Of a stretch of DNA of 64,000 nucleotides, positions 5,054-59,690 are shown piece by piece. The stretch spans positions 403,558,001 through 403,622,000 of the forward strand of contig OZ024741.1 in NCBI GenBank assembly GCA_964016885.1, written 5' to 3'. Each line of letters begins with the position of its first letter. Position 1 is the first letter of the stretch. Under the pieces are notes generated by a model. The model saw only the letters and a list, made by a program, of their open reading frames with translations, ran no database searches and was not told the DNA's origin. A program made the translations under genes and the position numbers. This stretch comes from Eledone cirrhosa. Taxonomy: Eukaryota.

Positions 5054-5174
5054 TTTCTTTATTAACCACAAGGGTTTACATAAAGTAGACATTAAGGACA
5101 ATGCAGGACAATACAGGACGGTACAAATGGGCATTTCTGCGTGTAAAAAACAAAAACAGAGGATGTAACAAAAA

Positions 5175-5249
<75 letters not shown>

Positions 5250-5426: not shown

Positions 5427-6509
5427 TAGGAAGCTATTGACTATCTACAACATGTTCCACAAGAGGAGTGATGTCGATAGACTCTACCTAAGGAGATCTG
5501 AGGGTGGAAGAGGTCTTATCAGCATAGAGGACTGTGTTCAGATGGAGAAAAACAACCTATACAAATACGTGACCTATAGTAAGGAGCCAATGCTCAGAGC
5601 TGTACTGAAGGAGGGGACAGTAGGCCAGGGGATATCCAAGGAGGAAATAACATCAAGGAGGAAGAGCAGCCTTAAGGGAAAATCCCTTCATAGTACCTTC
5701 TTTGAGAAAACTGAATTTAGAGATCCACAGACATGGAACTGGTTGAGAAGAGGAGACCTCAAAAAGGCTACAGAAGGAATGCTAATGGCTGCGCAGGAGC
5801 AGGCCCTCAAAACGAAGTGGTTGAAGCACCATATCTACAAGGAGGAGGCTAGCCCACTGTGCAGGATCTGTGGAGAGAGAGAGGAGACTGTGGCTCACAT
5901 TGTGTCCGAGTGTAAACACCTAGCCCAGACCCACTATAAGGGCTGGAGACACGATGTGATGGGCAGGGTGATCCACTGGCACCTGTGCAAAGTAAACAAT
6001 CTACCACATTCTGAGAAATGGTATGAGCATAGGCCAGAGGCGGTGATGGAGAACAGTCAGGTGAAGGTGCTGTGGGATTTTAGGATACAGACGGACAAAA
6101 AACTGGAACACAATAGACCTGACCTGGTGGTTGTGGACAAAGAAAAAAGATCGTGCCTGATTGTGGATGTGGCCTGCCCGTTCGACACGAGAGTGCAAGA
6201 GAAGGAGAGGGAGAAAATTAACCGATACCAGGACCTAAAGTGGGAGGTGAAAATGATTTGGAACTGCCATGAAGTCAAAGTGATCCCGATTGTCATAGGC
6301 GCACTGGGGACTATCTCCAAAGGTTTCCAGGGATGGTTAAAGAAAATCGGCCCCTTCACGCTTTTTGGAACGCTTCAAAAGGCATGCTTGCTTGGAACAG
6401 CAAGAACCCTCCGATACGTCCTGAATATCTGAGGCTGCAGGTAGTGGCTTGATATTCAATCCAACGGACTTTCCAGTTAACCAACATCAATGACTGAGAT
6501 TCAAGGAAT

Positions 6510-7099: not shown

Positions 7100-10000
7100 C
7101 ATATCTACTGAGTTACATACATACACATCTACTGAGTTACATACACATACATCTACTGAGTTACATACACATACATTTACTGTGTTACATACACACACAT
7201 CTACTGAGTTACATACATACACATCTACTGAGTTACATACATACACATCTACCGAGATACATACACACAGATCTACTGAGTTACATACACACACATCTAC
7301 TGTGTTATATACATACACATCTACTGAGTTACATACATACACATCTACCGAGATACATACAAACACATCTACCGAGTTACATACATACACATCTACTGAG
7401 TTACATACGCACACATTTACTGAGTTACATACATACACATCTACTGAGTTACATACACACACATCTACCGAGATACATACACACATATCCACTGAGTTAC
7501 ATACACACACATCTACTGAGTTACATACACACACATCTACTGAGTTACATACAGACATATATACTGAGTTACATACATACACATCTACTGAGTTACATAC
7601 ACACACATCTACCGAGATACATACACATACATTTACTGTCTTACATACAAACACATCTACTGAGTTACATACACACACATCTACCGGGTTACATACGTAC
7701 ACATCTACCGAGATACATACACACAGATCTACTGAGTTACATACACACACATCTACTGTGTTACATACACACACATCTACTGAGTTACATACATACACAT
7801 CTACTGAGTTGCATACATACACATCTAGCGAGATACATACACACACATCTACTAAGTTACATACACACACACATCTACTGAGTTACATACACACACATCT
7901 ACTGAGTTACATACACACACATCTACCGAGTTACATACGCACATCTACTGAGTTACATACACACATCTACCGAGTTACATACACATCTACTGTGTTACAT
8001 ACATATACATCTACTGAGTTACATACACACATCTACTGAGTTACATACACACACATCTACTGAGTCACATACACACATCTACTGTGTTACATACATACAC
8101 ATCTACTGTGTTACATATATATAATCTACTGAGTTAGATACACACACATCTACTGAGTTAGATACATGTACATCTACTGAGTTACATACACACATATCCA
8201 CTGAGTTACATACACACACATCTACTGAGTCACATACATACACATCTACTGAGTTAGATACACACACATCTACTGAGTTAGATACATACACATCTACTGA
8301 GTTACATACATACACATCTACTGAGTTACATACACATCTACTGTGTTACATACACACACATCTAGTGAGTTACATACATACACATCTACCGAGTTACATA
8401 CACATCTACTGTGTTACATACATATACATCTACCGAGTTACATACACATCTACTGTGTTACATACATGTACATCTACTGAGTTACATACACACATATATA
8501 GAGTTACATACATACACATCTACTGAGTTACATACACACACATCTACCGAGTTACATACACATCTACTGTGTTACATACACACACATCTAGTGAGTTACA
8601 TACATACACATCTACCGAGTTACATACACATCTACTGTGTTACATACATATACATCTACTAAGTTACATACACACATCTACTGTGTTACATACACACACA
8701 TTTACTGAGTTACATACACACATATCCACTGAGTTACATACACACAGATCTACTGAGTCACATACATACACATCTACTGAGTTACATACACACACATCTA
8801 CTGAGTTACATACACACATATATACTGAGTTACATACATACACATCTACTGAGTTACATACACACACATCTACCGAGATACATACACACAGATCTACTGA
8901 GTTACATACACACACATCTACTGAGTTACATACACACATATATACTGAGTTACATACATACACATCTACTGAGTTACATACACACACATCTACCGAGATA
9001 CATACACATACATTTACTGTCTTACATACAAACACATCTACTGAGTTACATACACACACATCTACCGGGTTACATACGTACACATCTACCGAGATACATA
9101 CACACAGATCTACTGAGTTACATACACACACATCTACTGAGTTACATACACACATATATACTGAGTTACATACACACATATATACTGAGTTACATACATA
9201 CACATCTACTGAGTTACATACACACACATCTACCGAGATACATACACACAGATCTACTGAGTTACATACACACACATCTACTGAGTTACATACACACATA
9301 TATACTGAGTTACATACATACACATCTACTGAGTTACATACACACACATCTACCGAGATACATACACATACATTTACTGTCTTACATACAAACACATCTA
9401 CTGAGTTACATACACACACATCTACTAAGTTACATACGTACACATCTACCGAGATACATACACACAGATCTACTGAGTTACATACACACACATCTACTGT
9501 GTTACATACATACACATCTACTGAGTTGCATACAAACACATATAGCGAGATACATACACACACATCTACTAAGTTACATACACACACACATCTACTGAGT
9601 TACATACACACACATTTACTGAGTTACATACATACACATCTACTGAGTTACATACACACATCCACTGAGTAACATACACACACATCTACTGAGTCACATA
9701 CACACATCTACTGTGTTACATACATACACATCTACTGTGTTACATACATATAATCTACTGAGTTAGATACACACATCTACTGAGTTAGATACATACACAT
9801 CTACTGAGTTACATACATGTACATCTACTGAGTTACATACACACATATATAGAGTTACATACATACACATCTACTGAGTTACATACACACACATCTACCG
9901 AGTTACATACACATCTACTGTGTTACATACATACACATCTACTGGGTTACATACATATAATCTACTGAGTTAGATACACACATCTACTGAGTTAGATACA

Positions 10001-10715
10001 CACACATCTACTGAGTTAGATACATACACATCTACTGAGTTACATACACACATATATAGAGTTACATACATACACATCTACTGAGTTACATGCACACACA
10101 TCTACTGAGTTGCATACATACACATCTACTGAGTCACATACACACATTTACTGTGTTACATACATACACATCTACTGGGTTACATACATATAATCTACTG
10201 AGTTAGATACACACACATCTACTGAGTTACATACACACACATCTACTGAGTTACATACACACACATCTACTGAGTTACATACACATCTACTGTGTTACAT
10301 ACACACACATCTACTGAGTTACATACACACACATCTACTGAGTTACATACATACACATCTACTGAGTTACATACATATAATCTACTGAGTTACATTCCCA
10401 CACATCTACTGAGTTACATACACACACATCTTCTGAGTTACATACACACACATCTACTGAGTTACATACATATAATCTACTGAGTTACATTCCCACACAT
10501 CTACTGAGTTACATACACACACATCTTCTGAGTTACATACACACACATCTACTGAGTTACATACACACACATCTACTGAGTTACATACACACACATCTAC
10601 TGAGTTACATACATATAATCTACTGAGTTACATTCTCACACATCTACTGAGTTACATACACACACATCTTCTGAGTTACATACACACACATCTACTGAGT
10701 TACATACACACAGAT
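7100..10715. repeat. ~24-bp minisatellite (ACATCTACTGAGTTACATACACAC), ~150 units
   Basis: Tandem unit of 20-26 bp that varies in its CA/TA content; it produces the spurious STELHTHT ORFs. Confidence 0.97.
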
Positions 10716-10745
10716 CGTCTGAGTTCCATGGTTTAAGAATTTTAG

Positions 10746-13700
10746 CAGAAAGTCATGACCTGGATTAAAGATAGAAGTCACGACCTTGATTAAAGATAGA
10801 AGTCACGACGTGGATTAAAGATAGACGTCACAACCTGTATTAAAGATAGAAGTCACGACCTGGGTTAAAGATAGAAGTCACGACCTGGGTTAAAGATAGA
10901 AGTCACGATCTGGATTAAAGATAGAAGTCACGACCTGGGTTAAAGATAGAAGTCACGACCTGGGTTAAAGATAGAATCACGACCTGGGTTAAAGATAGAA
11001 GCAACGACCTGGTTTAAAGATAGAAGTCACGACCTGGATTAAAGATAGAAGTCACGACCTGGATTAAAGATAGAAGTCACGATCTGGATTAAAGACAGAA
11101 GTCACGATCTGGATTAAAGATAGAAGTCCCTACCTGGGTTAAAGATAGAAGTCACGATCTGGATTAAACGTAGAAGTCAAGACCTGGATTAAAGATAGAA
11201 GTCACGACCTGGATTAAAGATAGAAGTCACGACCTGGATTAAAGATAGAAGTCACGACCTGGATTAAAGATAGAAGTCACGACCTGGATTAAAGATAGAA
11301 TCACGACCTGGGTTAAAGATAGAAGTCACGACCTGGGTTAAAGATAGAAGTCACGACCTGGATTAAAGATAGAAGTCACGATCTGGATTAAAGATAGAAG
11401 TCACGACCTGGGTTAAAGATAGAAGTCACGACCTGGATTAAAGATAGAAGTCACGACCTGGGTTAAATATAGAAGTCACGTCCTGGGTTAAAGATAGAAG
11501 TCACGACCTGGGTTAAAGATAGAAGTCACGACCTGGATTAAAGATAGAAGTCACGACCTGGATTAAAGATAGAAGTCACGACCTGGATTAAAGATAGAAG
11601 TCCCTACCTGGGATAAAGATAGAAGTCACGACCTGGATTAAACATAGAAGTCACGACCTGGATTAAAGATAGAAGTCACGACTTGTATTAAAGATAGAAG
11701 TCACGATCTGGATTAAAGATAGAAGTCACGACCTGGGTTAAAGATAGAAGTCACGACCTGGATTAAAGATAGAAGTCACGACCTGGATTAAAGATAGAAG
11801 TCACGACCTGGATTAAAGATAGAAGTCCCTACCTGGGTTAAAGATAGAAGTCACGACCTGGATTAAAGATAGAAGTCACGACCTGGATTAAAGATAGAAG
11901 TCACGACCTGGATTAAAGATAGAAGTCACGACCTGGATTAAAGATAGAAGTCCCTACCTGGGTTAAAGATAGAAGTCACGACCTGGATTAAACATAGAAG
12001 TCACGACCTGGATTAAATATAGAAGTCACGACTTGTATTAAAGATAGAAGTCACGACCTGTGTTAAAGATAGAAGTCACGACCTGGGTTAAATATAGAAG
12101 TCACGATCTGGATTAAAGATAGAAGTCACGACCTGGGTTAAAGATAGAAGTCACGACCTGGATTAAAGATAGAAGTCACGACCTGGATTAAAGATAGAAG
12201 TCACCACCTGGATTAAAGATAGAAATCACCACCTGGGTTAAAGATAGAAGTCACGACCTGGGTTAAGGATAGAAGCAACGACCTGGATTAAAGATAGAAG
12301 TCACCACCTGGGTTAAAGATAGAAGTCACGACCTGGATTAAAGATAGAAGTCACGACCTGGATTAAATATAGAAGTCACCACCTGGATTAAAGATAGAAG
12401 TCACCACCTGGGTTAAAGATAGAAGTCACGACCTGGGTTAAGGATAGAAGCAACGACCTGGATTAAAGATAGAAGTCACGACCTGGATTAAAGATAGAAG
12501 TCACGACCTGGATTAAAGATAGAAGTCACGACCTGGGTTAAAGATAGAATCACGACCTGGGTTAAAGATAGAAGTCACGACCTGGGTTAAAGATAGAAGT
12601 CACGACCTGGATTAAAGATAGAAGTCACGACCTGGATTAAACATAGAACTCACCACCTGGATTAAAGATAGAAGTCACGACCTGGATTAAAGATAGAAGT
12701 CACGACCTGGGTTAAAGATAGAAGCAACGACCTGGTTTAAAGATAGAAGTCACGACCTGGGTTAAAGATAGAAGTCACGACCTGGGTTAAAGATAGAATC
12801 ACGACCTGGGTTAAAGATAGAAGCAACGACCTGGTTTAAAGATAGAAGTCACGACCTGGATTAAAGATAGAAGTCACGACCTGGATTAAAGATAGAAGTC
12901 ACGATCTGGATTAAAGACAGAAGTCACGATCTGGATTAAAGATAGAAGTCCCTACCTGGGTTAAAGATAGAAGTCACGATCTGGATTAAACGTAGAAGTC
13001 AAGACCTGGATTAAAGATAGAAGTCACGACCTGGATTAAAGATAGAAGTCACGACCTGGATTAAAGATAGAAGTCCCTACCTGGGTTAAAGATAGAAGTC
13101 ACGATCTGGATTAAACGTAGAAGTCAAGACCTGGATTAAAGATAGAAGTCACGACCTGGATTAAAGATAGAAGTCACGACCTGGATTAAAGATAGAAGTC
13201 ACGACCTGGGTTAAAGATAGAATCACGACCTGGGTTAAAGATAGAAGTCACGACCTGGGTTAAAGATAGAAGTCACGACCTGGATTAAAGATAGAAGTCA
13301 CGATCTGGATTAAAGATAGAAGTCACGACCTGGGTTAAAGATAGAAGTCACGACCTGGATTAAAGATAGAAGTCACGACCTGGGTTAAAGATAGAAGTCA
13401 CGTCCTGGGTTAAAGATAGAAGTCACGACCTGGGTTAAAGATAGAAGTCACGACCTGGATTAAAGATAGAAGTCACGACCTGGATTAAAGATAGAAGTCA
13501 CGACCTGGATTAAAGATAGAAGTCCCTACCTGGGATAAAGATAGAAGTCACGACCTGGATTAAACATAGAAGTCACGACCTGGATTAAAGATAGAAGTCA
13601 CGACTTGTATTAAAGATAGAAGTCACGATCTGGATTAAAGATAGAAGTCACGACCTGGGTTAAAGATAGAAGTCACGACCTGGATTAAAGATAGAAGTCA

Positions 13701-16700
13701 CGACCTGGATTAAAGATAGAAGTCACGACCTGGATTAAAGATAGAAGTCCCTACCTGGGTTAAAGATAGAAGTCACGACCTGGATTAAAGATAGAAGTCA
13801 CGACCTGGATTAAAGATAGAAGTCACGACCTGGATTAAAGATAGAAGTCACGACCTGGATTAAAGATAGAAGTCCCTACCTGGGTTAAAGATAGAAGTCA
13901 CGACCTGGATTAAACATAGAAGTCACGACCTGGATTAAATATAGAAGTCACGACTTGTATTAAAGATAGAAGTCACGACCTGTGTTAAAGATAGAAGTCA
14001 CGACCTGGATTAAAGATAGAAGTCACGACCTGGATTAAAGATAGAAGTCACGATCTGGATTAAAGACAGAAGTCACGATCTGGATTAAAGATAGAAGTCC
14101 CTACCTGGGTTAAAGATAGAAGTCACGATCTGGATTAAACGTAGAAGTCAAGACCTGGATTAAAGATAGAAGTCACGACCGGGATTAAAGATAGAAGTCA
14201 CGATCTGGATTAAAGATAGAAGTCCCTACCTGGGTTAAAGATAGAAGTCACGATCTGGATTAAACGTAGAAGTCAAGACCTGGATTAAAGATAGAAGTCA
14301 CGACCTGGATTAAAGATAGAAGTCACGACCTGGATTAAAGATAGAAGTCACGACCTGGGTTAAAGATAGAATCACGACCTGGGTTAAAGATAGAAGTCAC
14401 GACCTGGGTTAAAGATAGAAGTCACGACCTGGATTAAAGATAGAAGTCACGATCTGGATTAAAGATAGAAGTCACGACCTGGGTTAAAGATAGAAGTCAC
14501 GACCTGGATTAAAGATAGAAGTCACGACCTGGGTTAAAGATAGAAGTCACGTCCTGGGTTAAAGATAGAAGTCACGACCTGGGTTAAAGATAGAAGTCAC
14601 GACCTGGATTAAAGATAGAAGTCACGACCTGGATTAAAGATAGAAGTCACGACCTGGATTAAAGATAGAAGTCCCTACCTGGGATAAAGATAGAAGTCAC
14701 GACCTGGATTAAACATAGAAGTCACGACCTGGATTAAAGATAGAAGTCACGACTTGTATTAAAGATAGAAGTCACGATCTGGATTAAAGATAGAAGTCAC
14801 GACCTGGGTTAAAGATAGAAGTCACGACCTGGATTAAAGATAGAAGTCACGACCTGGATTAAAGATAGAAGTCACGACCTGGATTAAAGATAGAAGTCCC
14901 TACCTGGGTTAAAGATAGAAGTCACGACCTGGATTAAAGATAGAAGTCACGACCTGGATTAAAGATAGAAGTCACGACCTGGATTAAAGATAGAAGTCAC
15001 GACCTGGATTAAAGATAGAAGTCCCTACCTGGGTTAAAGATAGAAGTCACGACCTGGATTAAACATAGAAGTCACGACCTGGATTAAATATAGAAGTCAC
15101 GACTTGTATTAAAGATAGAAGTCACGACCTGTGTTAAAGATAGAAGTCACGACCTGGGTTAAATATAGAAGTCACGATCTGGATTAAAGATAGAAGTCAC
15201 GACCTGGGTTAAAGATAGAAGTCACGACCTGGATTAAAGATAGAAGTCACGACCTGGATTAAAGATAGAAGTCACCACCTGGATTAAAGATAGAAATCAC
15301 CACCTGGGTTAAAGATAGAAGTCACGACCTGGGTTAAGGATAGAAGCAACGACCTGGATTAAAGATAGAAGTCACCACCTGGGTTAAAGATAGAAGTCAC
15401 GACCTGGATTAAAGATAGAAGTCACGACCTGGATTAAATATAGAAGTCACCACCTGGATTAAAGATAGAAGTCACCACCTGGGTTAAAGATAGAAGTCAC
15501 GACCTGGGTTAAGGATAGAAGCAACGACCTGGATTAAAGATAGAAGTCACGACCTGGATTAAAGATAGAAGTCACGACCTGGATTAAAGATAGAAGTCAC
15601 GACCTGGGTTAAAGATAGAATCACGACCTGGGTTAAAGATAGAAGTCACGACCTGGATTAAACATAGAACTCACCACCTGGATTAAAGATAGAAGTCACG
15701 ACCTGGATTAAAGATAGAAGTCACGACCTGGGTTAAAGATAGAAGCAACGACCTGGTTTAAAGATAGAAGTCACGACCTGGGTTAAAGATAGAAGTCACG
15801 ACCTGGATTAAAGATAGAAGTTACGACCTGGATTAAAGATAGAAGTCACGACCTGGATTAAAGATAGAAGTCACGACCTGGATTAAAGATAGAAGTCACG
15901 ACCTGGATTAAACATAGAACTCACCACCTGGATTAAAGATAGAAGTCACGACCTGGATTAAAGATAGACGTCACGACCTGGGTTAAAGATAGAAGCAACG
16001 ACCTGGTTTAAAGATAGAAGTCACGACCTGGATTAAAGATAGAAGTCACCACCTGGATTAAAGATAGAAGTCACCACCTGGATTAAAGATAGAAGTCACC
16101 ACCTGGATTAAAGATAGAAGTCACCACGTGGGTTAAAGATAGAAGTCACGACCTGGGTTAAAGATAGCAGCAACGACCTGGATTAAAGATAGAAGTCACG
16201 ACCTGGATTAAAGATAGAAGTCACGACCTGGATTAAAGATAGAAGTCACGACCTGGGTTAAAGATAGAATCACGACCTGGGTTAAAGATAGAAGTCACGA
16301 CCTGGGTTAAAGATAGAAGTCACGACCTGGATTAAACATAGAAGTCACGACCTGGATTAAAGATAGAAGTCACGACTTGTATTAAAGATAGAAGTCACGA
16401 CCTGGGTTAAAGATAGAAGTCACGACCTGGATTAAAGATAGAAGTCACGACCTGGATTAAAGATAGAAGTCACAACCTGGGTTAAAGATAGAAGTCACGA
16501 CCTGGATTAAAGATAGAAGTCACGACCTGGATTAAAGATAGAAGTCACGACCTGGATTAAAGATAGAAGTCACGACCTGGATTAAAGATAGAAGTCGCTA
16601 CCTGGGTTAAAGATAGAAGTCACGACCTGGATTAAACATAGAAGTCACGACCTGGATTAAAGATAGAAGTCACGACTTGTATTAAAGATAGAAGTCACGA

Positions 16701-19700
16701 CCTGGGTTAAAGATAGAAGTCACGACCTGGGTTAAATATAGAAGTCACGATCTGGATTAAAGATAGAAGTCACGACCTGAGTTAAAGATAGAAGTCACGA
16801 CCTGGATTAAAGATAGAAGTCACGACCTGGATTAAAGATAGAAGTCCCTACCTGGGTTAAAGATAGAAGTCACGACCTGGATTAAAGATAGAAGTCACCA
16901 CCTGGATTAAAGATAGAAGTCACCACCTGGATTAAAGATAGAAGTCACCACCTGGATTAAAGATAGAAGTCACCACGTGGGTTAAAGATAGAAGTCACGA
17001 CGTGGGTTAAAGATAGAAGCAACGACCTGGATTAAAGATAGAAGTCACGACCTGAATTAAAGATAGAAGTCACGACCTGGATTAAAGATAGAAGTCACGA
17101 CCTGGGTTAAAGATAGAATCACGACCTGGGTTAAAGATAGAAGTCACGACCTGGGTTAAAGATAGAAGTCACGACCTGGATTAAAGATAGAAGTCACGAC
17201 CTGGATTAAACATAGAACTCACCACCTGGATTAAAGATAGAAGTCACGACCTGGATTAAAGATAGAAGTCACGACCTGGGTTAAAGATAGAAGCAACGAC
17301 CTGGTTTAAAGATAGAAGTCACGACCTGGATTAAAGATAGAAGTCACGACCTGGATTAAAGATAGAAGTCACGACCTGGATTAAAGATAGAAGTCACGAC
17401 CTGGATTAAAGATAGAAGTCCCTACCTGGGTTAAAGATAGAAGTCACGATCTGGATTAAACATAGAAATCACGACCTGGATTAAAGATAGAAGTCACGAC
17501 CTGGATTAAAGATAGAAGTCACTACCTGGATTAAAGATAGAAGTCACCACCTGGGTTAAATATAGAAGTCACGACATGGGTTAAAGATAGAAGTCACGAC
17601 CTGGGTTAAAGATAGAAGCAACGACCTGGATTAAAGATAGAAGTCACGACCTGGATTACAGATAGAAGTCACGACCTGGATTAAAGATAGAAGTCACGAC
17701 CTGGGTTAAAGATAGAAGTCACGACCTGGGTTAAAGATAGAAGTCACGACCTGGATTAAAGATAGAAGTCACGACCTGGGTTAAAGATAGAAGTCACGAC
17801 CTGAGTTGAAGATAGAAGTCACGACCTGGGTTAAAGATAGAAGTCACCACCTGGATTAAAGATAGAAGTCACGACCTGGATTAAAGATAGAAGTCACGAC
17901 CTGGGTTAAAGATAGAAGCAACGACCTGGATTAAACATAGAAATCACGACCTGGATTAAAGATAGAAGTCACGACCTGGATTAAAGATAGAAGTCACGAC
18001 CTGGGTTAAAGATAGAAGTCACGTCCTGGGTTAAAGATAGAAGTCACGACCTGGGTTAAAGATAGAAGTCACGACCTTGTTTAAAGATAGAAGTCACGAC
18101 CTGGATTAAAGATAGAAGTCACGACCTGGATTAAAGATATTAGTCATGACCTGGATTAAAGATAGAAGTCCCTACCTGGGTTAAAGATAGAAGTCACGAC
18201 TTGGATTAAACATAGAAGTCACCACCTGGATTAAAGATAGAAGTCACGACCTGGATTAAAGATAGAAGTCACGACCTGGATTAAAGATAGAAGTCACGAC
18301 CTGGATTAAAGATAGAAGTCCCTACCTGGGTTAAAGATAGAAGTCACGACCTGGATTAAACATAGAAGTCACGACCTGGATTAAAGATAGAAGTCACGAC
18401 TTGTATTAAAGATAGAAGTCACGACCTGGGTTAAATATAGAAGTCACGACCTGGGTTAAATATAGAAGTCACGATCTGGATTAAAGATAGAAGTCACGAC
18501 CTGGGTTAAAGATAGAAGTCACGACCTGGATTAAAGATAGAAGTCACGACCTGGGTTAAAGATAGAAGTCACGACCTGGATTAAAGATAGAAGTCATGAC
18601 CTGGATTAAAGATAGAAGTGACGACCTGGATTAAAGATAGAAGTCACGACATGGATTAAAGATAGAAGTCACGACCTGGATTAAAGATAGAAGTCACGAC
18701 CTGGATTAAAGATAGAAGTCCCTACATGGGTTAAAGATAGAAGTCACGACCTGGGTTAAAGATAGAAGCAACGACCTGGATTAAAGATAGAAGTCACGAT
18801 CTGGATTAAAGATAGAAGTCACGACCTGGAATAAAGATAGAAGTCACGACCTGGGTTAAAGATAGAATCACGACCTGGGTTAAAGATAGAAGTCACGACC
18901 TGGGTTAAAGATAGAAGTCACGACCTGGATTAAAGATAGAAGTCACGACCTGGATTAAAGATAGAAGTCACGACCTGGATTAAACATAGAACTCACGACC
19001 TGGATTAAAGATAGAAGTCCCTACCTGGGATAAAGATAGAAGTCACGACCTGGATTAAAGATAGAAGTCACAACCTGGATTAAAGATAGAAGTCACGACC
19101 TGGGTTAAAGATAGATGCAACGACCTGGTTTAAAGATAGAAGTCACGACCTGGATTAAAGATAGAAGTCACGACCTTGATTAAAGATAGAAGTCACGACC
19201 TGGATTAAAGATAGAAGTCACGACCTGGGTTAAAGATAGAAGCAACGACCTGGTTTAAAGATAGAAGTCACGACCTGGATTAAAGATAGAAGTCACGACC
19301 TGGATTAAAGATAGAAGTCCCTACCTGGGTTAAAGATAGAAGTCACGACCTGGATGAAAGATAGAAGTCACCACCTGGATTAAAGATAGAAGTCACCACC
19401 TGGATTAAAGATAGAAGTCACCACCTGGATTAAAGATAGAAGTCACCACGTGGGTTAAAGATAGAAGTCACGACCTGGATTACAGATAGAAGTCAGGACC
19501 TGGATTAAAGATAGAAGTCACGACCTGGGTTAAAGATAGAAGTCACGACCTGGGTTAAAGATAGAAGTCACTACCTGGATTAAAGATAGAAGTCACGACC
19601 TGGGTTAAAGATAGAAGTCACGACCTGAGTTGAAGATAGAAGTCACGACCTGGGTTAAAGATAGAAGTCACCACCTGGGTTAAATATAGAAGTCACGACC

Positions 19701-20192
19701 TGGGTTAAAGATAGAAGTCACGACCTGGGTTAAAGATAGAAGCAACGACCTGGATTAAAGATAGAAGTCACGACCTGGATTACAGATAGAAGTCACGACC
19801 TGGATTAAAGATAGAAGTCACGACCTGGGTTAAATATAGAATCACGACCTGGGTTAAAGATAGAAGTCACGACCTGGGTTAAAGATAGATGTCACGACCT
19901 GAGTTGAAGATAGAAGTCACGACCTGGGTTAAAGATAAAAGTCACGACCTGAGTTGAAGATAGAAGTCATGACCTGGGTTAAAGATAGAAGTCACGACCT
20001 GTGTTAAAGATAGAAGTCACGACCTGGGTTAAAGATAGAAGTCACTACCTGGATTAAAGATAGAAGTCACGACCTGGGTTAAAGATAGATGTCACGACCT
20101 GAGTTGAAGATAGAAGTCACGACCTGGGTTAAAGATAGAAGTCACGACGTGAGTTGAAGATAGAAGTCACGACCTGGGTTAAAGATAGTCAC
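10746..20192. repeat. 25-bp satellite (TAGAAGTCACGACCTGGRTTAAAGA), ~375 units
   Basis: Uninterrupted head-to-tail monomers with recurring variants and no unique spacers. Confidence 0.98.
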
Positions 20193-28595: not shown

Positions 28596-29019
28596 AGAAT
28601 ATGGCTGTGTAGTTGCTATTTAAGGTAACTTAAAATACAGTGGGAATACGAAGAAAGCAATAACAGGGGGATCCTCATCAGTTGTCTACTGGGGGTCTAG
28701 GATATTTCTACGCTTTAAAGACAAGATACCACTTCACCCCAGGGCGTCAATAACTGGATAAGTTATTGGGAAAACGATGGAAGGAGGGAAGGAAAGCAAA
28801 GGGGAAGAAAAGAGAAACAATAACAAAACAGCGAAAAAACCCCACAAACCGAGCACTGTGCGAGCAACTATAGGTAGGAAATCCAAGACCACTCACTCTC
28901 TCTATATATATATAGAGAGAGAGAGAGAAAGAGAGATAGATAGATAGAGAGAGAGAGATAGGCAAGGATAGTTAGAAATGGATGATAGATAGACACATAG
29001 ACAGATAGATACATAGATA

Positions 29020-29650
29020 ATTTTCTTTTTATTTGCCACCAGGGCATCAAAAAGTGACACAAGTACAATGGGGGGAGTTTACATAACAAGGCGTCCTCAA
29101 TAAGGAGGAGGCAATAACAAGATATAAAAATAAAATAAAATATAGCAAAATAAAATTTATAACAAAATCCTCAATAGAGAGGAGGCGCCTTGGGAGGTCG
29201 CACACACCCCCGAAGAAAAATGTGCAACCCTTCTCCTCAGGAGCACAGAGAGGGGGTGCTCCCTTGGTCTTTCATCTGTCTCACCTATAGTCTGATGTAG
29301 AGTGAAGGCCCATTCACACGGGCCATTCTCGCCACTTTCACCCATCTTTCATAAAAAACGGCTAGGGTGCAGCACCTCTCTCTCCATCCTGATCCTTCTT
29401 CCGAAATGATATCGGAAGAAACGGACCAGTTGTTGGCCAGAGAGAAAGGTGTCTCACCTCAGTCCTTTCAGACGCGTCCACCATACAACCTCTTTCGCCA
29501 TGGCTATTACGCACAGAAACACCGCCTCTCCTTCGTTTTTGAAGAGAGGAGGCGGCTTGATCGTTACAATAGACTCGGTGGTCAACCGGATCGGTCCCAC
29601 CCTTGACAGCAGTTGTTCGACATAGCCCCACAGATCGGCAATGCCCGATG
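29020..29650 (-). mobile_element. Tx1-clade copy A (5'-truncated, ~630 bp)
   Basis: Nearly identical to 32972-33600; bounded by GATA repeats. Confidence 0.9.
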
Positions 29651-29679
29651 TATCTATCTATAGATAGATACATAGATAG

Positions 29680-31827
29680 ATTTCTTTATTAGCCACAAGG
29701 GCGCAACAAGAAAAGGGGACAATACAAAGACATGCCGGGGATTTTACATACAGTCGTGTAAAAAATATAAAAACAAACAATTTCAACAATCGAAATCCCC
29801 AATAGGGGGGAGGCGCCACAAATGGGTTGTTTAATACCCCGTCGATAGAACAACCCTCAACTTCAGGAGCGTGTTGTGCAAGTGCACCTTTCTTCCTTTT
29901 GCTCTCTTCCTCAACCTACAGGCTTATAAACAGAGAAGGCCCAATCACTCGGGCCATTTTCGCTTCATTCACCCACCTTTCAGTAAATGTACTGGGGTGC
30001 AGTGCCTCTCTCTCCACCCTGATTCTCCTTCTAAAGTGATACTTAAAGAAGGGAATCAATTGTTGTCCGGAGAGAAAGGCATCTGTCCTCAGTCCTCTCA
30101 ACCTCGTCCACCATATAACTTCTTTCACCATAGCCACCGTACAGAGGAAAACCGCCTCTCTTTCGTTTTTGAAAGAGTCTGGCGGTTTGATCCTTACTAT
30201 GGACTCGGCAGTCAACTGGATTTGTCCCATACGCGACAGCAGTTGTTCTGCATAGTTCCACAGGTCGCTTACGCCCGTGCAGTGTACAATTGCCTGCAGA
30301 ACTGTTTCAATGTCTTGCGCACATCTTGGACACGTCCTCTTGGAAGGATCCCTGCCAAGGCGTCCGTGCCTGTAGATCTTGTCATGAACCGGTAGAGCTC
30401 CTCGGTAGCACTGCCAGGCCAGGGACCTCTGGAAGTTGTCCATAGGTCCCGGGCGGAAAGTCCTACTAAACAGACTGGTGAGCTCATCGTCTTCGACGCC
30501 CAGAGTCTCTCCGAGCACGTCGTCGCCCTTGTAACGTACAATGCCTCTATAGAATGTCGAAGTGGAGTCTCCACTGATTGCTGTGCCCGCTTGCCAGAGG
30601 ACTGTGAGCGCCTGAGCGCATTCAATGTGCCAGGCGCCCATCGTTTTCGGTCTTTTCTTCACCCAGGACTGCAGCTCCGTTAGCGAGACCAGCTGTGGGA
30701 AAGCCTGTCTCACAAACGGTGCCCACACCGGTTGGGGGTCGGTGAGGAATACCTGGAGATGCCGCAGCCTCAGCGCATGTTTGCGCATCATCAGCCACGG
30801 CATTCCCAGCCCTCCGTTGGAAGGGTGCTGACAGCAGACGGATCTCCTCACCAGCGGAGCCTGCTTCTTCCACAGAAACTGGAAGAGCATGCGTTCCATC
30901 TTGGCGAGGTGTTCACGGGGACAAGGCACGACAGTTAAGCGGTAGTAGATGACGGACGCTATGAAAGTGTTCGCCACCTCCGCTCGACCTTTCAAGGACA
31001 GTTTGCACTCTGCCCACTTCTGAGTGAGTGCAAACACCTTGGCCGTGACCTCGTTCCAGTTTTTCTCCACCTGGAGGTCTGGACCGAATCAGACCCCGAG
31101 CAATTTCACCGGTCCATCCGTCCAGCGTCCAACGACGCTGTCGGATGTCATCGGTTTGCCTCTCCACGTACCGAGTTGCAAACCGACAGACTTGTCTGGG
31201 TTTAGTTTTGCTCCCGTCAGCGTTTCGTATTCTTTCAGTATGTTGCCGATCACCCCGATTTCCGAGGTGCTCGACACCATTACCGTTACGTCGTCGGCAT
31301 AAACCGTCGCCGCTTTGCGCAGTCACGGTTCTAGGGGGATGCCCTGCAACAACTCCAATTTCCGCAGTTGTGGCTCTAGAGTCAATACATACAGAATGGA
31401 GGAGAGAGGGCATCCTTGTCGAATGGAGCGCGTGATTGCGAACGGCTCCGATAGGTAGCCGTTCACCTTGACCCTCGAGCAATGCTGGTGTGCATCGCCT
31501 CGATCCATCCTCTGAACACGGGACCGAAACCGGCCGCCTTGAGAACCGCTTCCAAGTATCGATGGTCGACCCTATCGAATGCCTTAGACTGATCCAAGTT
31601 GATCAGAGCCCCACCGAAGCCGGGTTTACTACCCACCCTCTCTATGATGTATCGCATGAGGTGGATGTTGTCGTGTATGGACCTGGTCGGGATTGCACAC
31701 GTATGCTCTTTCCCTACCAGGTTCTCGACGACAAGCGCCAACCTCGTCGCTAGCACCTTGGCCAAAATCTTTAACTCTGTGTTGAGCAGAGTTATGGGCC
31801 TGAAGTTGTTAATTTCGTCCCCCTTGA
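29680..31827 (-). mobile_element. Tx1-clade copy B (5'-truncated inside RT, disrupted)
   Basis: NFRPITLLN, DQSKAFDRV, RQGCPLS, YADD (31276-31305), CPRC..HC; stops and frameshifts present; GATA repeats at both junctions. Confidence 0.92.
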
Positions 31828-31916
31828 TAGATAGATAGATAGAAATATAGACAGACATTGATAGATAGAAAAGCAGATAGATATATAGATAGATAGATAG
31901 ATAGATATATAGATAA

Positions 31917-32947
31917 ATTTCTTTATTAGCCACAAGGGCACAAAAGAAGGGGACAAATACAAATGGGGAGTTTACATACAGGTATATGAAAATAAAACTA
32001 TTAATAAAATAACAAATAACAATTGAAATCCCAATAGGGGGGGGGGGGGTCGTTACACACAGGTAACACATTCCCCCGAAAAAATGTGCAACCCTCATCT
32101 CCAAGAGTACGAAGAGTTTGTACTCCTTTCCTCTCCTCCTCCTTTTCCTCAATCTACAGGCTGATATAGACAGAAGGCCCATTCACTCGGGCCATTCTCG
32201 CCACTTTCACTCACCTTTTATAAAACTAGCTGGGGTACAGCACCTCTCTCTCCATCCTGACTCTTCTTCCAAAGTGGTATTTGAAAAAAAGAATCAGTTG
32301 TTGGCCGGAGAAAAAGGTGTCTGACCTCAGCCCTTTCAATCTCGTCCACCATATAACCTCTTTCGCCATAGCTATCACACAAAGGAAAACCGCCTCTCCT
32401 TCGTTTTTGAAGGAGGGTGGCGGTTTGATCATGACAATGGACTCGGTGGTCAACCGGATTGGTCCCACCCGCGACAATAGTCGTTCTACATAGCCCCACA
32501 GGTCGGTGACGCCCGGGCAGTGTATGAATGCGTGCGCAACGGTTTCTTCGTCTCGCACGCACCTCGGACAGATCTTTTTTGCAGAGTCCCTGCCAGGCCA
32601 GGGACTTTTGGAAGTTGTCCATCGGTCCCAGGCGGAAGGTCCTACCGAACAGACTGGCCAGTTCATCTTCCTCTACGCCTAGAGTTTCACCGAGCGCGCC
32701 GTCGCACTTGCTGCGGATCAACCCTCTATAGAATGACGAAGTGGAGTCTCCACTGATCGCTGGGTCCGCCTGCCAGAGGGCTGTGAACGCCTGAGCACAT
32801 TCAATGTGCCAGTCGCCCATTTTCTTCGGTCTTTGCTTGACCCAGGACTGCAGCTCGGTCATCGAGACGAGTCGTGGGAAGGCTCGCCTCACGAACGGGG
32901 CCGACACCGGTTGTCCGGTGAGGAATACCTAGAGATGCCGCAGCCTG
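31917..32947 (-). mobile_element. Tx1-clade copy C (5'-truncated, third subfamily)
   Basis: ORF2 C-terminus homologous to B and D but with a distinct 3' UTR and an internal deletion near 32590; GATA repeats on both sides. Confidence 0.9.
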
Positions 32948-33234
32948 ATAGACAGATAGATAGATAGATATGTTTCTTTTATTTGCCACTAGGGCATCAA
33001 AAGTGGGACAAGTACAAAGGGGGGAGTTTACACAAAAAGGCGTCCTCAATAAGGAGGAGGCAATAACAAAATATAAAAATAAAATAAGATATAACAAAAA
33101 ATAAAATTTATAACAAAATCCTCAATAGGGAGGAGGCGCCTTGGGGGGTCGCACACACCCCCGAAAAAAGTGTGCAACCCTTCTCCTCAGGAGCACAGAG
33201 AAGGGGTGCTCCCTTGGTCTTTCATCTTCCTCAC

Positions 33235-36200
33235 CTATAGTCTGATGTAGAGTGAAGGCCCATTCACACGGGCCATTCTCGCCACTTTCACCCATCTTTC
33301 ATAGAAACGGCTGGGGTGCAGCACCTCTCTCTCCATCCTGATCCTTCTTCCGAAATGATATCGGAAGAAACGGACCAGTTGTTGGCCAGACAGAAAGGTG
33401 CCTGACCTCAGTCCTTTCAGACGCGTCCACCATACAACCTCTTTCGCCATGGCTATTACGCACAGAAACACCGACTCTGCTTCATCTTTGAAGGGGGGAG
33501 GCGGCTTGATCATTACAATAGACTCGGTGGTCAACCGGATCGGTCCCACCCTTGACAGCAGTTGTTCGACATAGCCCCACAGATCGGCTACGCCCGAGCA
33601 GTGTACCAATGCGTGTGCAACGGTTTCCTCGTCGCACACGCATCTGGGACAGATCTTTTTGGCGGGGTCCCTACCCGGGCGCCCGTGTCTGTAGAGCCTT
33701 TCTCGAACGGGTAAAGCTCCTCGGTAGCACTGCCAGGCCAGGGACTTCTGGAAGTTGTCCATAGGTCCCGGGCTGAATGTCCTACCGAACAGGCTGGCCA
33801 GTTCGTCCTCCTCCATGTCTAGGGCTTCTCCGAGGGCGTCGTCGCACCTGCTGCGTACCAGCCCTCTATAGAATGTTGCGGTGGGGTCTCCACTGATAAC
33901 CGGATCCGCCTGCCAGAGGGCGGTGAGTGCCTGGGCACACTCGGTGTGCCAGGCGCCCAGTTTTCTCGGTCTTTGCTTGACCCAGGATTGCAGCTCGGTG
34001 AGTGAGACGAGTCTGGGAAAGGTTCGTCTCACAAACGAGGCCCACACCGGTTGTCCGGTGAGGAATACGTAGAGGTGCCGTAGCCTTAATGCGTGTTTAC
34101 GCATCATTAGCCACGGCATCCCCAGCCCTCCTTTCGAAGGGTGTTGACAGCAGATGGATCTCCTCACCATAGGAGCCCGCCTCTTCCAAAGGAATTGGAA
34201 GAGTCCGCGCTCCATCTTGGTGAGGGTTTCCCTTGGGCAGGGCACTACGGTCAGGCGGTAGTAGATGACGGACGCTATGTAGGTGTTCGCCACCTCCACC
34301 CGACCTTTCAGGGATAGTTTGCAACTGGCCCACTTCTGGGTCAGTGCAAACACCCTGTTCGTAACCTCCGCCCAGTTTTTCTCCACCTGGAGGTCCGGTC
34401 CGAACCAGACCCCGAGCAACTTCACCGGGCCCTCCGTCCAGCGTCCGACGACGCCATCGGAGGGCATCGGTCTGCCCCTCCACGTGCCGAGTTGCAAACC
34501 GATCGACTTGTCCCGGTTCAGCTTAGCCCCTGTGAACTTTTCGTACTCCTCCAGTAAGGTGCCGACCGCCTCGATTTCGGAGGCCGTCGACACCATTACT
34601 GTCACGTCATCGGCGTAGGCCGACACCGCTTTCCGCAATCCCGGTTCCAAAGGGATGCCCTGCAACAACTCCAACTTCTGCAGTAGTGGCTCGAGAGTCA
34701 ACACATACAGAAGGGAGGAGAGAGGGCACCCTTGTCGGATGGACCGCGCGATTTTGAACGTCTCCGAGGGGTAGCCGTTCACCTTGACCCTAGAGCAGAT
34801 GCGGCTGCTGTGCATAGCAGTGATCCAGCCCCTGAAAACGGGTCCGAAGCCTGCCGCCGCTAGCACCGCATCCAGGTAACCATGGTCGACCCTATCGAAC
34901 GCCTTAGATTGATCCAAGTTGATCAGAGCCCCACCAAAGCCGGGTTCGTTCCCAACCCTCTCTATGATGTATCGCATGAGGTGGAGGTTGTCATGGATGG
35001 ACCTGGACGGGATAGCGCATGTCTGCGCATCTCCCACCAGGTTGCCCACGACAAGCGCCAACCTCTTTGCTAGCACCTTGGCCAAAATCTGTAACTCTGT
35101 ATTTAGCAGAGTTATGGGCCTGAAGTTACTTATTTCGTCCCCCTTGTTCTCGTCCTTCCTCACTAGCGTGACTACGCCCTTGGTCACAGTACAGGGAATT
35201 CTCCCGTTCTGTTGCCAGTTGCAGTAGACCGCCTCGAGGAGATCGGGGAACAAGTCCGGCATAGCTAGATATAATTCGTAAGGAAGACCATCGAGACCCG
35301 GGGATTTGCGTTTGCCGCATTGGCTCAGCACGTCCTCTATCTCAGCGGCCGAAATCGGCTCCTCGCAGGACTTCGCCTCCCTGTCCGAGAGGCGCGGCAG
35401 GCCGTCGAGGTATGGACCGAAGTCCACGTTCCCAACCGGCTCCCCGCCCCTCCCGAACAGTCGGGCAAAGTGCCTTTGAAAGGCCTCACACATCTGCTTA
35501 GGCTCAAGAATCGCCTGTCCATCCAGGTCTCGCAAAGACCGGATGGTGGATTTAGTTCCACTGTTGGCCTCTGTCACGCGGGCCCAGCCAACAGCTTTGG
35601 TCCCCTCGTTCCCTAGAGCACGTATTTTACTTCGGACAACGCAGCCTTCGTGCTTCGCGTCGAAAAACTGGCTCAAAGCCGTTCTCGACGCTAGCACTCT
35701 GGCCACGTCGCCGCTTCTAATTGCCTCTTCTACTCTATCTATTAGCTCCCTTTCCTTCCTATTCCTATCCGCAGCTAGAACTTTACTAAATTCTATCGAG
35801 ACTACTCTAATCTCTCTCTTTAGAGATACCCACCACCTGCTGTTGACGATCGCTCCAGTCAACCGTTCCTTAACTAACGTACTAATCCGATTCCTGTTGG
35901 CTCTACTTGCCGGCAAGGACAAGTTGAGCTTCCAGTAACCGGGGCCCTGTCTATGGGTTCTGTCAAGGTTGACCATGCAGGTCACTAATTTGTGGTCTGA
36001 ATAGCCAACCATGCGCATTTTTGGACAACTTAAAAAGTCCTTATCCTTAATTCTAACTAAGAACCTATATAGGTACGACCTAGATGATCCGCTACGATTT
36101 CCCCAAGTCCAGGTTGGCGCAGTCGGAAAATCTAGTCGATATCTATCGGCCAGGTCAAATCGACCGATTAACCCTTTGAGGATATTACACCCCTCTCTAT

Positions 36201-36672
36201 CGGGTCAGGCCCCTACGTAGTCCCAGCGTGTATCTAGGATACCATTCCAGTCCCCCACTAATAGCAAGGAGCGGGACGTCCCTAGAAAAGTCTCCAGACG
36301 ATGGAAGAAGTCCGGCCGCATTGACCCGAAAGGGCCGTAGGCGGCTACCAACCTAAACGCTCCGCCTTTACCACTGCCAAGGTCCAGAACCACTAGTCGA
36401 CCCTCCGGGTCCAAATGTACCATCTGTGTTGCGAGACCCAGATGTTTTTGCAGCAGAACGACAACTCCACCCCCACCTCCGGGCTGACAGAGAGATGCGT
36501 GCATCTCAAAGTCATCAAAGGTGGGGGCCAGCTGTCGCACGTTGCTGATCCGGGCCTCGCAAATAACCATCACATCTATACGTTGTGACCTGAGGTCATT
36601 TAGAAGCATTGCTTGCTTCCAAGTTGAGCCCAGGCCACGCGCATTTAAACAGCCTACTCTTAGCATAGCCAT
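33235..36672 (-). CDS. ORF2: APE endonuclease + reverse transcriptase + cysteine-rich C-terminus (~1145 codons, one in-frame TGA at 36205-36207)
   Basis: APE motifs CLNARGL, ICE, VGDWN, WTW, SDH; GPGYWKLN; KSPGLDG, NFRPITLLN, KAFDRV, RQGCPLS, AYADDV. I read through the TGA and the frame continues into the 927-aa ORF. Confidence 0.92.
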
Positions 36673-36737
36673 GTTGGTGGTGAAGAGAAAAGGCACTTAT
36701 CTCTCTGCGTCCCGGGTATCGGGCTGCACAATTTCCA

Positions 36738-37991
36738 TTAGGGTGGGGGATGGGTTGTTTGTGGGGTGGTGGTTTGTGGAAGTGTAGGGGCATCAGTGTG
36801 TTGTGTGGTTGGGGAGTTTGGAGTTGTGTGGGTGTTTGGGGAGGGGGTGAGGTAGTTTTTTAGGAGGACGCGGTTAATGGGCCCGACGCAGGGGTGACCC
36901 ACGTCCTCTTTAAAATTGTTTTTTAAAGTTTTATAGGTGTCCTGTGGGGCCTTAATCATTTTGAGGTGGGGGAAATCCCCTGCCTGGGTGAAGTTAGGCC
37001 CTTGTGTTTTTATTAGATTGTTGTTGTACACAATGTTTAACAGTTTTTTGTTTCTTGTGTTTATGTATGTGTATGCATGTTTTTGTTTTTGTGTGGTGTT
37101 TTTTGTTTGCTGTTGTTGTGAGCTCTTTTGTGTTGGTGTCAGTGTTATGTTTTGGGGAGGGGTTTTTTTCATTTGTGTGTCTGAGGTGTGTTTTCTTTTT
37201 TTTCTTTTGATTGTGTGGAAGTGCTCCTCCTCGTCTGACGACGAACTAGGGTCATCTTCCGCGTTGGAGGGGAGGGGTATATTTTCGGGTTGTGTTTGCG
37301 GTACGGGTGTTTTGGAAATTGTTTTTGTTTTTTGAGTGGAGGGGATGGGTTGGACATTGTTTTGTTTTGGTTTGAGCTGTGGTGGTTGTTTTTGTAGTGG
37401 TAGTTGTGGTGATTGTGTTGGTTGTGCAGTTGTTGGTGGTGTAGGCAGGATTGGGGTTTTCTTATTAAGTTGAGGACAGACAGCCCTCAGGTGACCTCTG
37501 GTTCCGCAGAGGTAACACGAGGGCCGTCTACCCTCAACGGTAATGTTGATGAAGGTTAGATCATCCAGTATGACGCGTTCAGGGATCTGGGCGATCCTTT
37601 CGGGCCTCATTTGAACTACAAGTTCGAGGCTCGTTCCACTGAACGCGTCACCCGATGCCTTTCCCATGGACACCAGCATGTCATCCTCCAGGTCCAGAAA
37701 ACCTGTCAAAACCCACCATATGTCCATAATCGGCAGGATGGTGTGGATTTTTATTTTTTGTGTTCTTCTACCCATGTACGTAGGGTAGAAGGTGTATGCG
37801 GTGGATGTGATTGGTTTGATGGACAGTTTCACTGCTGTGTCCCTGTCCTTCATGAGAATGGATAGACTCCCGTAGAGTCTATCCTTCTGAATGAAGGTGA
37901 TGTCCTTCATGACGTCTTTTAAAACCAGCTCTATCTCGCTCTGTGATGGTTGAGCTGGTTTTTTACTTTTGTTCGAGATTGTCCTAAACAT
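36738..37991 (-). CDS. ORF1: gag-like nucleic-acid-binding protein with a CCHC zinc knuckle
   Basis: CYLCGTRGHLRAVC (CX2CX4HX4C) followed by a P/Q/T/K-rich tail; lies just upstream of ORF2. The frame is open up to the junction, so the N-terminus may be truncated. Confidence 0.85.
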   Translation of the reverse strand: MFRTISNKSKKPAQPSQSEIELVLKDVMKDITFIQKDRLYGSLSILMKDRDTAVKLSIKPITSTAYTFYPTYMGRRTQKIKIHTILPIMDIWWVLTGFLDLEDDMLVSMGKASGDAFSGTSLELVVQMRPERIAQIPERVILDDLTFINITVEGRRPSCYLCGTRGHLRAVCPQLNKKTPILPTPPTTAQPTQSPQLPLQKQPPQLKPKQNNVQPIPSTQKTKTISKTPVPQTQPENIPLPSNAEDDPSSSSDEEEHFHTIKRKKRKHTSDTQMKKTPPQNITLTPTQKSSQQQQTKNTTQKQKHAYTYINTRNKKLLNIVYNNNLIKTQGPNFTQAGDFPHLKMIKAPQDTYKTLKNNFKEDVGHPCVGPINRVLLKNYLTPSPNTHTTPNSPTTQHTDAPTLPQTTTPQTTHPPP

Positions 37992-38018
37992 GACCGTGTT
38001 TAGGAGTCTCTGGCTTAT

Positions 38019-38085
<67 letters not shown>

Positions 38086-38718
38086 GATAAGTAGAGATGG
38101 ATAGATAGATATCTGCATTAAAACCCCGTTGTATATCATCCCTCATCAGAGTTCGATGAAACTAATAACTAATCAATTATTGTGGTTGATATAATTAATT
38201 TTAGCTTCCCTTAAGCTCCTGGCTTTATGCCAACCTTAGAAGCTAATATTTATTTAATTAACAAAATCTTTAAAAAGTAAGAGCCGGTCGTTAACTTAAG
38301 GATTTTACTGCTGTGGGAACGACTATTGTGTCTTTTGTGGTACCTGCCTTCAAACGGACCAACAAGTTGCATCTGAATAGTGCTTGACCTGTTAAAGGTA
38401 GTAGCTAAAATCTGCTTCATAATAAGCCACACTGTCTTAAGACATTTAAACATCCATATACAGACGAATCAATGCTGCTTCACTTGCTGAAACTGGGAGC
38501 CAAATCTCCTTTAAGATATATCGTACCGTCTTAAAATATTTAAATATCCATAGGGAGGTTTTGTCCACTAATTACATGTAAGTCTTTATTCATCGTATAT
38601 TTTCCAACTCACTTGATATATGAAACCCTAGATATGTGAAATCCTACCGTATATGCATTTAGTATGCATATACTGAGGTTTCCCCTTGTTTATATACATT
38701 CCTTCTATCACTATATAT

Positions 38719-46136: not shown

Positions 46137-46843
46137 TTTCTTTATTAGCCACAAGGGCGCACAAGAAAAGGGGACAATACAAAGACATGCCGGGGATTTT
46201 ACATACAGTCATGTAAAAAATATAAAACAAACAATTATAACAATAGAAATCCCCAATAAGGGGGAAGCGCCACAAATGGGTGTTTAATACCCCGTAGAAA
46301 GAAAAACCCTCAACTTCAGGAGCGTGTTGTGCTAGTGCTCCTTTCTTCCTTTTGCTCTCTTCTTCAACCTAGATGTTTATATACAAAGAAAGCCCAATCA
46401 CTCGGGCCATTCTCGCCACATTCACCCACCTTTCAGTAAATTTACTGGGGTGCAGTGCCTCTCTCTCCACTCTGATTCTCCTTTTAAAGTGATACTTAAA
46501 GAAGGGAATCAATTGTTGTCCGGAGAGAAAGGCATCTGTCCGCAGTCCTCTCAATCTGGTCCACCATATAACCTCTTTCACCATAGCCACTATACAGAGG
46601 AAAACCACCTCTCTTTCGTTTTTGAAAGAGGCTGGCGGTTTGAACCTTACTATGGACTCGGCAGTCAACTGGATTTGTCCCATATGCGACAGCAGTTGTT
46701 CTGCATAGTTCCACAGTTTGGTTACGCCCGGGAAGTGTACAATTGCGTGCAGGACGGTTTCAATGTCCTGCTCACATCTTGGACACAACCTCTTGGAAGG
46801 ATCCCTGCCGGGGCGTCCGTGCCTGTAGATCTTGTCTCGAATC
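46137..46843 (-). mobile_element. Tx1-clade copy E (5'-truncated, same subfamily as B)
   Basis: Colinear with 29680-30385; GATA/GA repeats on both sides. Confidence 0.92.
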
Positions 46844-59599: not shown

Positions 59600-59690
59600 C
59601 GTCATGTAAAACCCCTGCCGTCATGTAAAACCCCCGTCTTGTAATGTCTCATTTTTGTACGCCCCTGTGGCAAATAAAGAAAGATATCTC
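59600..59690 (+). mobile_element. Tx1-type 3' terminus remnant
   Basis: CATGTAAAACCCCCG..GCCCCTGTGGCAAATAAAGAAAG resembles the 3' ends of copies A-E. Confidence 0.55.

Follow-up and report, generated by a model that had tools for sequence, protein, structure and literature searches.

When copies of a retrotransposon lie head to tail with nothing but a microsatellite between them, is that microsatellite the target into which they inserted, or the tail that they brought along? The question is raised by a 64,000-nucleotide stretch of the genome of the octopod Eledone cirrhosa (assembly GCA_964016885.1, contig OZ024741.1, here C2, positions 403,558,001-403,622,000; this whole stretch is called the window below), in which copies of a long interspersed nuclear element (LINE) with an apurinic-type endonuclease (APE) and a reverse transcriptase (RT) are stacked in (GATA)n. 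After a search of the 3.0-Gb genome we conclude that the repeat is an insertion target, because 5′ junctions are oriented, target-site duplications (TSDs) are non-periodic and neighbouring copies are co-oriented. The sequences make it probable that young LINEs, likely of the Tx1 clade, use TATC/GATA microsatellites as one-way insertion sites, the likely route being target-primed reverse transcription (TPRT), which combines an endonuclease nick with pairing of the tail; the architecture, the oriented junctions, the TSDs, the absence of poly(A) and the many intact copies are direct observations.

An earlier note on the letters of the window had described four co-oriented copies and a fifth further on, A to E, and they were found essentially as located there, all on the minus strand. 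Copy A (29022-29648) preserves 627 nt from the 3′ end of a D-type element, with 94.6% identity to the natural full-length copy at locus L130, and is framed by a 17-bp TSD carrying a variant base, the downstream copy of which (29003-29019) is identical to the upstream copy (29662-29678), where the 3′ end of copy B adjoins; the 5′ junction of copy A also shows 11 nt of inverted repeat. Copy B (29681-31826) is a 2.1-kb 5′-truncated B-type element with 98% identity to the natural full-length L143 and a broken RT frame. A degenerate (GATA)n spacer (31827-31917, plus strand) leads to copy C (31918-32948), a 1.0-kb 5′-truncated C-type element of an older subfamily, 89-92% identical to its relatives and missing about 50 nt internally, and a second (GATA)n spacer (32949-32972, plus strand), consisting of D tail plus target, leads to copy D (32973-38016; 5,044 nt; 98.9% identical to the intact L130). 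Copy D is not full length: the first 676 nt are missing, and it starts at nt 677 of the 5,718-nt natural copy. Its open reading frame (ORF) 2 (33235-36672, minus strand) carries APE, RT and a C-terminal CCHC motif, with an in-frame stop at 36205-36207, and the ORF1 remnant (36738-38016, minus strand) holds a CX2CX4HX4C zinc knuckle (Pfam zf-CCHC, E=0.05, below the cut-off). A (GATA)n tract (38017-38111, plus strand) follows at the 5′ junction of D, and copy E (46137-46843) is a solo 0.7-kb B-type copy within a GATA/GA tract.

The spacing of copies A to D by GATA tracts alone was borne out, the spacers being 24-91 nt in length, and so was the shared terminus without poly(A), since all five copies end in AATAAA(A)GAAA followed by 0-2 subfamily-specific nucleotides and TATCT. 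The proposed three subfamilies of 3′ untranslated region (UTR) are equally distinct, with an identity over 260 nt of 0.92 between A and D, 0.91 between B and E, and 0.51-0.69 for the remaining pairs. That a single copy was multiplied into the stack, by tandem duplication or in the assembly, is extremely improbable. A sister family, called T below, does have an array in which the spacers are identical, but for the window stack such an origin is contradicted by the mosaic of three subfamilies, the 3′ UTRs of which are 51-69% alike, by the different truncation points and by the TSD of copy A's own, and was rejected. Target and tail could not be told apart within the window, because what flanks A and C on the 5′ side is the tail of B and of D, respectively.

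Searches of the genome yielded 1,009 candidates for the D 3′ end, 1,419 for the B 3′ end, 1,183 for the C 3′ end and 1,455 for the D 5′ end. From the best-matching copies we assembled a test set of 107 focal copies outside the window, 29 for each of the three 3′ ends searched (D, B and C) together with 20 of 30 D 5′ matches, each extended to full length. The 5′ junction lay inside the fetched DNA in 105 (81 5′-truncated and 24 full-length copies) and was missing from it in 2. It was scored positive when at least two TATC units occurred within the preceding 30 nt, an arrangement seen by chance at 0.24% of 398,800 random positions in the sense direction and at 0.25% in the antisense. Among the 5′-truncated copies 51 of 81 were positive and none carried the reverse (GATA) orientation; when limited to truncated copies without a family 3′ end in the upstream 200 nt, 30 of 59 were positive, as were 22 of the 24 full-length copies. 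On the 3′ side, sense TATC was found in 79 of 107 copies and antisense in none, the repeat persisting at +15 to +45 in 47 of 107, and no A7 run was detected within 60 nt of the 3′ end in any of the 107. Non-periodic TSDs of at least 12 bp were identified for 29 of 105 copies (median 17 bp, mostly 13-21 bp), against a mean of 6.3 and a maximum of 12 in 200 shuffled flank pairings, and they begin at TATCT/TCTAT. A family neighbour within 250 nt had the same orientation in 59 of 105 cases and the opposite in 1. In 40 arbitrary 10-kb stretches (400 kb) we counted 564 (TA)n tracts and 7 TATC tracts, a difference of about 80-fold, with TA on both sides of just 5 of 105 copies, and the preference per TATC tract is therefore large. 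A TATC-dominated flank was present on at least one side of 87 of 105 copies, above the published criterion of Kojima for target-specific Tx1 elements, in which one sequence type occupies more than 20% of flanks (PMC4494074).

Independent and oriented insertion into the repeat, as the earlier note had it, is thus supported by the 5′ junctions, the TSDs and the same-orientation neighbours, and the junction census of genomic copies revealed neither a majority of 5′ junctions without the repeat nor random orientation. Its further claim that the repeat is target rather than just tail holds for the target, on the evidence of the genome-wide copies, and needs amending for the tail, as TATC units are also carried at the element's own ends: a full-length copy in a 49-bp satellite (L122) has TATC-type repeat of its own, 18 nt at the head and a few nucleotides at the tail. 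In the same way, the label (GATA)n-specific stands as a strong preference and falls as strict specificity, since 18 of 105 copies lack a TATC-dominated flank and occupy (TA)n, (TACC)n, (TC)n or no repeat.

Element-borne units are what would be expected if the repeat, as in CR1/L2, were only carried along as a tail or added by the RT, with near-random insertion, and if the 5′ TATC came from tiny earlier insertions or template jumps. Full-length heads do carry TATC units into non-GATA sites (L122, L137), and micro-insertions of the 3′ end alone occur (L016, L027, L063). We nevertheless hold this explanation to be very improbable, given that at L015, L024 and L077 the TSD spans repeat and unique sequence and long repeat extends beyond the 5′ TSD on its upstream side, and that stacking is strictly co-oriented, 59 versus 1. 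TSDs include unique sequence at L015, L019, L024 and L085, and at L015, L024 and L043 they link the end of the repeat with unique sequence or with an older copy's head. The micro-insertions, consisting of the last 10-20 nt of the element, lie within TATC tracts at L016, L027, L063, L065 and L079, which suggests repeated abortive hits on one tract. At L043, L057 and L024 a new truncated copy is joined by its 5′ end, at a microhomology inside the TSD, to the older copy directly downstream.

The sister family T was found in the random stretches as a 70%-identical element (L186); it is about 6.0 kb long with several 3′ UTR subfamilies, and a 140-nt 3′ fragment lies in the window at 5054-5192 (minus strand), within (TAA)n. 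The terminal motif of T is that of the TATC families and is followed by (ATT)n. Among 29 further copies the 3′ flank was (ATT)n in 27 and TATC in none, and 11 resolved truncated 5′ junctions comprised 6 ATT, 1 TAA and 0 TATC/GATA (background 0.27%). All 14 long copies end in an ATT-type tail, 13 of them with a full-length head after (ATT)n, and about 126 of 150 scored matches, as counted by hand, have an open ORF2. Family T appears to do with (ATT)n what the TATC families do with their repeat. No cross-use of targets between T and the TATC families was detected among 221 distinct 3′ ends; two apparent cross-target 3′ ends turned out upon inspection to be misclassifications. At C2:188.05-188.08 Mb (L323-L326) five full-length T copies lie in tandem with four identical spacers, an array that is a tandem duplication or an assembly effect and not independent insertion, and spacings of 6.1 kb like those of this array recur among other T matches.

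A third, unrelated LINE at 1218-5011 of the window (plus strand) served as a control. It is young (copies 99% identical; 1,039 candidates), with a C-terminus of the restriction-like endonuclease (RLE) type by which we take it to be Dong/R4-like. None of its 10 truncated 5′ junctions showed GATA/TATC, and 8 of 10 were (TAA)n by eye; repeat-rich DNA alone therefore does not yield the GATA signal. Family T shares the tracts of this local Dong-like LINE on the opposite strand, and often sits antisense inside its (TAA)n tail. A second RLE-type fragment is present at about 5430-6500 of the window.

For the TATC families the following course of insertion may be proposed. The APE would nick the GATA strand at or next to the T-A step, with a register uncertain by 1 nt; the cut is placed at or one base from this step because of the TSD starts, which lie 2 nt beyond the terminal motif for D and C and 0 nt beyond it for B, and because of the off-repeat sites. 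The ATT family would fit the same nick register. Transcription would run from the upstream into the downstream repeat, leaving UAUC units at both ends of the RNA. With the AATAAA signal about 10 nt before the end of the element, these units would precede any poly(A), and readthrough is likely. The nicked strand would then pair with the 3′ UAUC repeat of the RNA and prime reverse transcription there, so that no poly(A) would be left. Each insertion would duplicate the target and add units, later copies could enter the same tract, including earlier tails and heads, and repeated hits would build head-to-tail stacks of mixed subfamilies.

In this course, selection of the site probably lies mainly with the endonuclease and is reinforced by pairing of the tail. 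Off-repeat sites resemble the motif (TATCT at L085, TCTAT at L122, TACC at L005), the non-repeat-site TSDs of L085 and L019 begin with the motif or a one-base variant, and some insertions match the tail by merely 1-3 nt (L059, L019); motif-like off-repeat sites and such short tail matches favour endonuclease recognition. Conversely, a relaxed T-A-step nicker could owe its specificity mainly to annealing of the UAUC or AUU 3′ repeat, a GATA/ATT switch then being a change of tail and not of protein. It would be in line with the repeat units carried at the ends of the element (L122, L137), with both families presumably fitting a nick at one T-A step, with a putative specificity loop similar in the TATC and ATT families, and with the influence of 3′ repeats on site choice in RTE-clade elements described in PMC6007223, where the L1 site is given as 5′-TT/AAAA. 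We regard such tail guidance as unlikely, as L059, L019 and L005 share 1-3 nt with the tail yet fall in motif-like sites, and as the APE domains differ at 39% of sites, some of them uniform across four TATC families and different in T. Between T and the TATC families the APE is 59-62% and the RT 76-79% identical.

Several findings weigh against the proposed oriented, endonuclease-led insertion into TATC. The copies are a non-random set, being the best-matching 30 of the 40 scored per search among 1,009-1,455 candidates. Of the truncated 5′ junctions, 30 of 81 lacked two TATC units; this number includes at least 5 unclear boundaries in divergent ORF1 (L004, L009, L017, L040, L054), which were scored as misses. 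Forty-nine of 105 copies have no TSD of at least 12 bp, and 27 more match as pure repeat only. The duplication at L122 is at most 1 nt, with the nick register off by 1 nt. Just 1-2 of the 7 random TATC tracts touch a family fragment, most being unoccupied, and the T array with its four identical spacers indicates that duplication or assembly also builds arrays. The hairpin loop steers endonuclease specificity in L1 and R1, and here it is similar in the TATC and ATT families.

The family group consists of APE-RT LINEs of about 5.7-5.8 kb. The natural full-length D element of 5,718 nt encodes an ORF1 of about 590 aa and an ORF2 of 1,145 aa, and ORF2 of L130 matches the Pfam domains Exo_endo_phos (E=6e-8) and RVT_1 (E=5e-26), with zf-RVT (E=4e-5) below the cut-off; in sequence alignment the catalytic APE residues are retained. 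Among 20 long copies, all 98-100% identical to L130, 8 have ORF1 and ORF2 both open. In the endonuclease search 150 matches were scored, at 99-100% identity, of which 122, counted by hand, lie in a 1,153-codon open frame, which makes the family very young. There are at least four full-length types (D, B, X and Y), with differing 5′ UTRs, each beginning directly after (CTAT)n. The 5′ UTRs of L130, L143, L157, L154 and L331 all differ, each folds GC-rich hairpins 100-170 nt from its start, and four of the five carry a splice-donor-like GTAAG close to the start; when four long loci were scanned against Rfam for a ribozyme at the 5′ end, just low-complexity miRNA-type matches below gathering scores came up. 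As a rough gauge of abundance, the TATC group occupies about 2.9 kb and family T 3.5 kb of the 40 arbitrary stretches. At C14:18.98-18.99 Mb (L327-L328) three D-type copies lie head to tail with differing TATC spacers.

As to the clade, the RT tree was built from 57 of 58 rows (Aldrovandia was dropped as short), among which neither vertebrate L1 nor any confirmed named Tx1, Kibi, Koshi, Keno or Dewa element is represented. D, B and X form a clade (100/99), and together with T, an Argonauta protein and one NCBI protein they make up a six-row clade (100/99) that is sister to ENA/JGI proteins (100/100). These rows lie within a 48-row group (ultrafast bootstrap, UFBoot, 86; Shimodaira-Hasegawa-like approximate likelihood-ratio test, SH-aLRT, 95) that also holds Tx1-type proteins of fish, amphibians, turtle and lancelet, set apart from plant, fungal and algal rows. 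The closest named relative is the Argonauta hians protein, with 67% RT identity. In a tree free of confirmed named references, the Tx1 assignment made in the earlier note is probable and unproven. The CCHC zinc knuckle in ORF1 is a feature of Tx1, and a CX2CX4HX4C knuckle is visible in ORF1 of D, B, X and Y (Pfam zf-CCHC, E=0.013-0.05, below the cut-off); ZCCHC3-type RNA-binding domains (PF23057/PF23058), such as the fish Tx1-type protein P0019 has, were not detected at E up to 0.1 in five ORF1s, which may reflect divergence. In the tree the RT lies outside the fish clade that contains BAD04856.1 and BAC82621.1, with 33-36% identity to these and to P0019; we take the two accessions to belong to the Kibi/Koshi/Keno/Dewa deposit series, their names being unconfirmed. 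This position would suggest that microsatellite targeting arose here independently of fish Kibi and Koshi. A metagenome scan for the sister clade (P0077) found no locus, and ESM Atlas matches were RT/APE clusters only, without taxa.

L1 carries a poly(A) tail and inserts at T-rich sites. The present LINEs resemble human L1 in the APE-RT-CCHC order of ORF2p (alignment over 850 aa, E=2e-48), in TPRT and in TSD length, and differ in having a repeat tail in place of poly(A) and a CCHC knuckle in ORF1. Among elements without long terminal repeats (non-LTR), Waldo and Mino belong to the R1 clade. Like Dong in (TAA)n, Waldo in (ACAY)n and Mino in (AC)n share with the present LINEs the targeting of microsatellites and differ in belonging to other clades; the microsatellite targets listed for non-LTR elements are ACAY, AC, TC, TTC and TAA, and Dong includes a snail member (PMC3812793). 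Closer in kind are Kibi in (TC)n and Koshi in (TTC)n, of the Tx1 clade in teleost fish (PMC4494074, PMC3812793), which are likewise APE-RT LINEs in a pyrimidine-rich microsatellite read on the strand of the element; the target here is TATC/GATA, and flanks were TC-dominated on both sides in 1 of 105 copies. Crocodilian Tx1 families (Tx1-1_Crp, Tx1-2_AMi and others) in (TTCC)n/(TTTC)n (PMC4494074) share the preference for tetranucleotide microsatellites within Tx1 and differ in repeat and host; they are described as close to Kibi and Koshi. In Octopus vulgaris 80 L1-Tx1 families are reported, 13 of them recently active, and the main text and supplement row of that report give no target sites for them (PMC13282606); the present group may be among these families or their orthologues.

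Apart from these elements, the window contains a short 3′ end of another family at about 59630-59682 (plus strand), seen also at L121, L131 and L008, which bears the family terminal motif and a GA-TATCT type tail. Large tandem arrays of a 24-bp unit (x154) and a 25-bp unit (x378) lie at 7103-20188, with minisatellites of 77-bp, 100-bp and 41-bp units further along.

Microsatellite-targeting Tx1 elements, including tetranucleotide ones, are already published; what is new here is the GATA target and the ATT sister family. A GATA- or ATT-targeting Tx1 was not found in the open-access literature, Repbase and Dfam being outside this search, so that an entry may exist, and the accessible portions of PMC10294476, PMC9004415, PMC4889948 and PMC2684134 add nothing on targets. 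A wider picture can be offered tentatively and with more doubt than confidence, that of an undescribed octopod radiation of active Tx1-like LINEs, independent of Kibi and Koshi, in which sister lineages have split (TATC)n and (ATT)n between them, seed and lengthen their own targets, and have the target co-determined by the tail; if true, a switch of target could begin as a change of the RNA tail. How APE-type LINEs choose microsatellites was described as "not well understood" in a 2013 review (PMC3812793). Here one genome holds two sister families, each with more than 100 open-ORF2 copies, with the same 3′ terminus and with non-overlapping targets, so that a clean test of endonuclease swap against tail swap becomes possible, and the pair is likely to serve as a test of how LINEs change target. 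For Eledone cirrhosa itself, the family likely continues to generate large insertion polymorphism at GATA microsatellite loci and to add to repeat growth in the genome.

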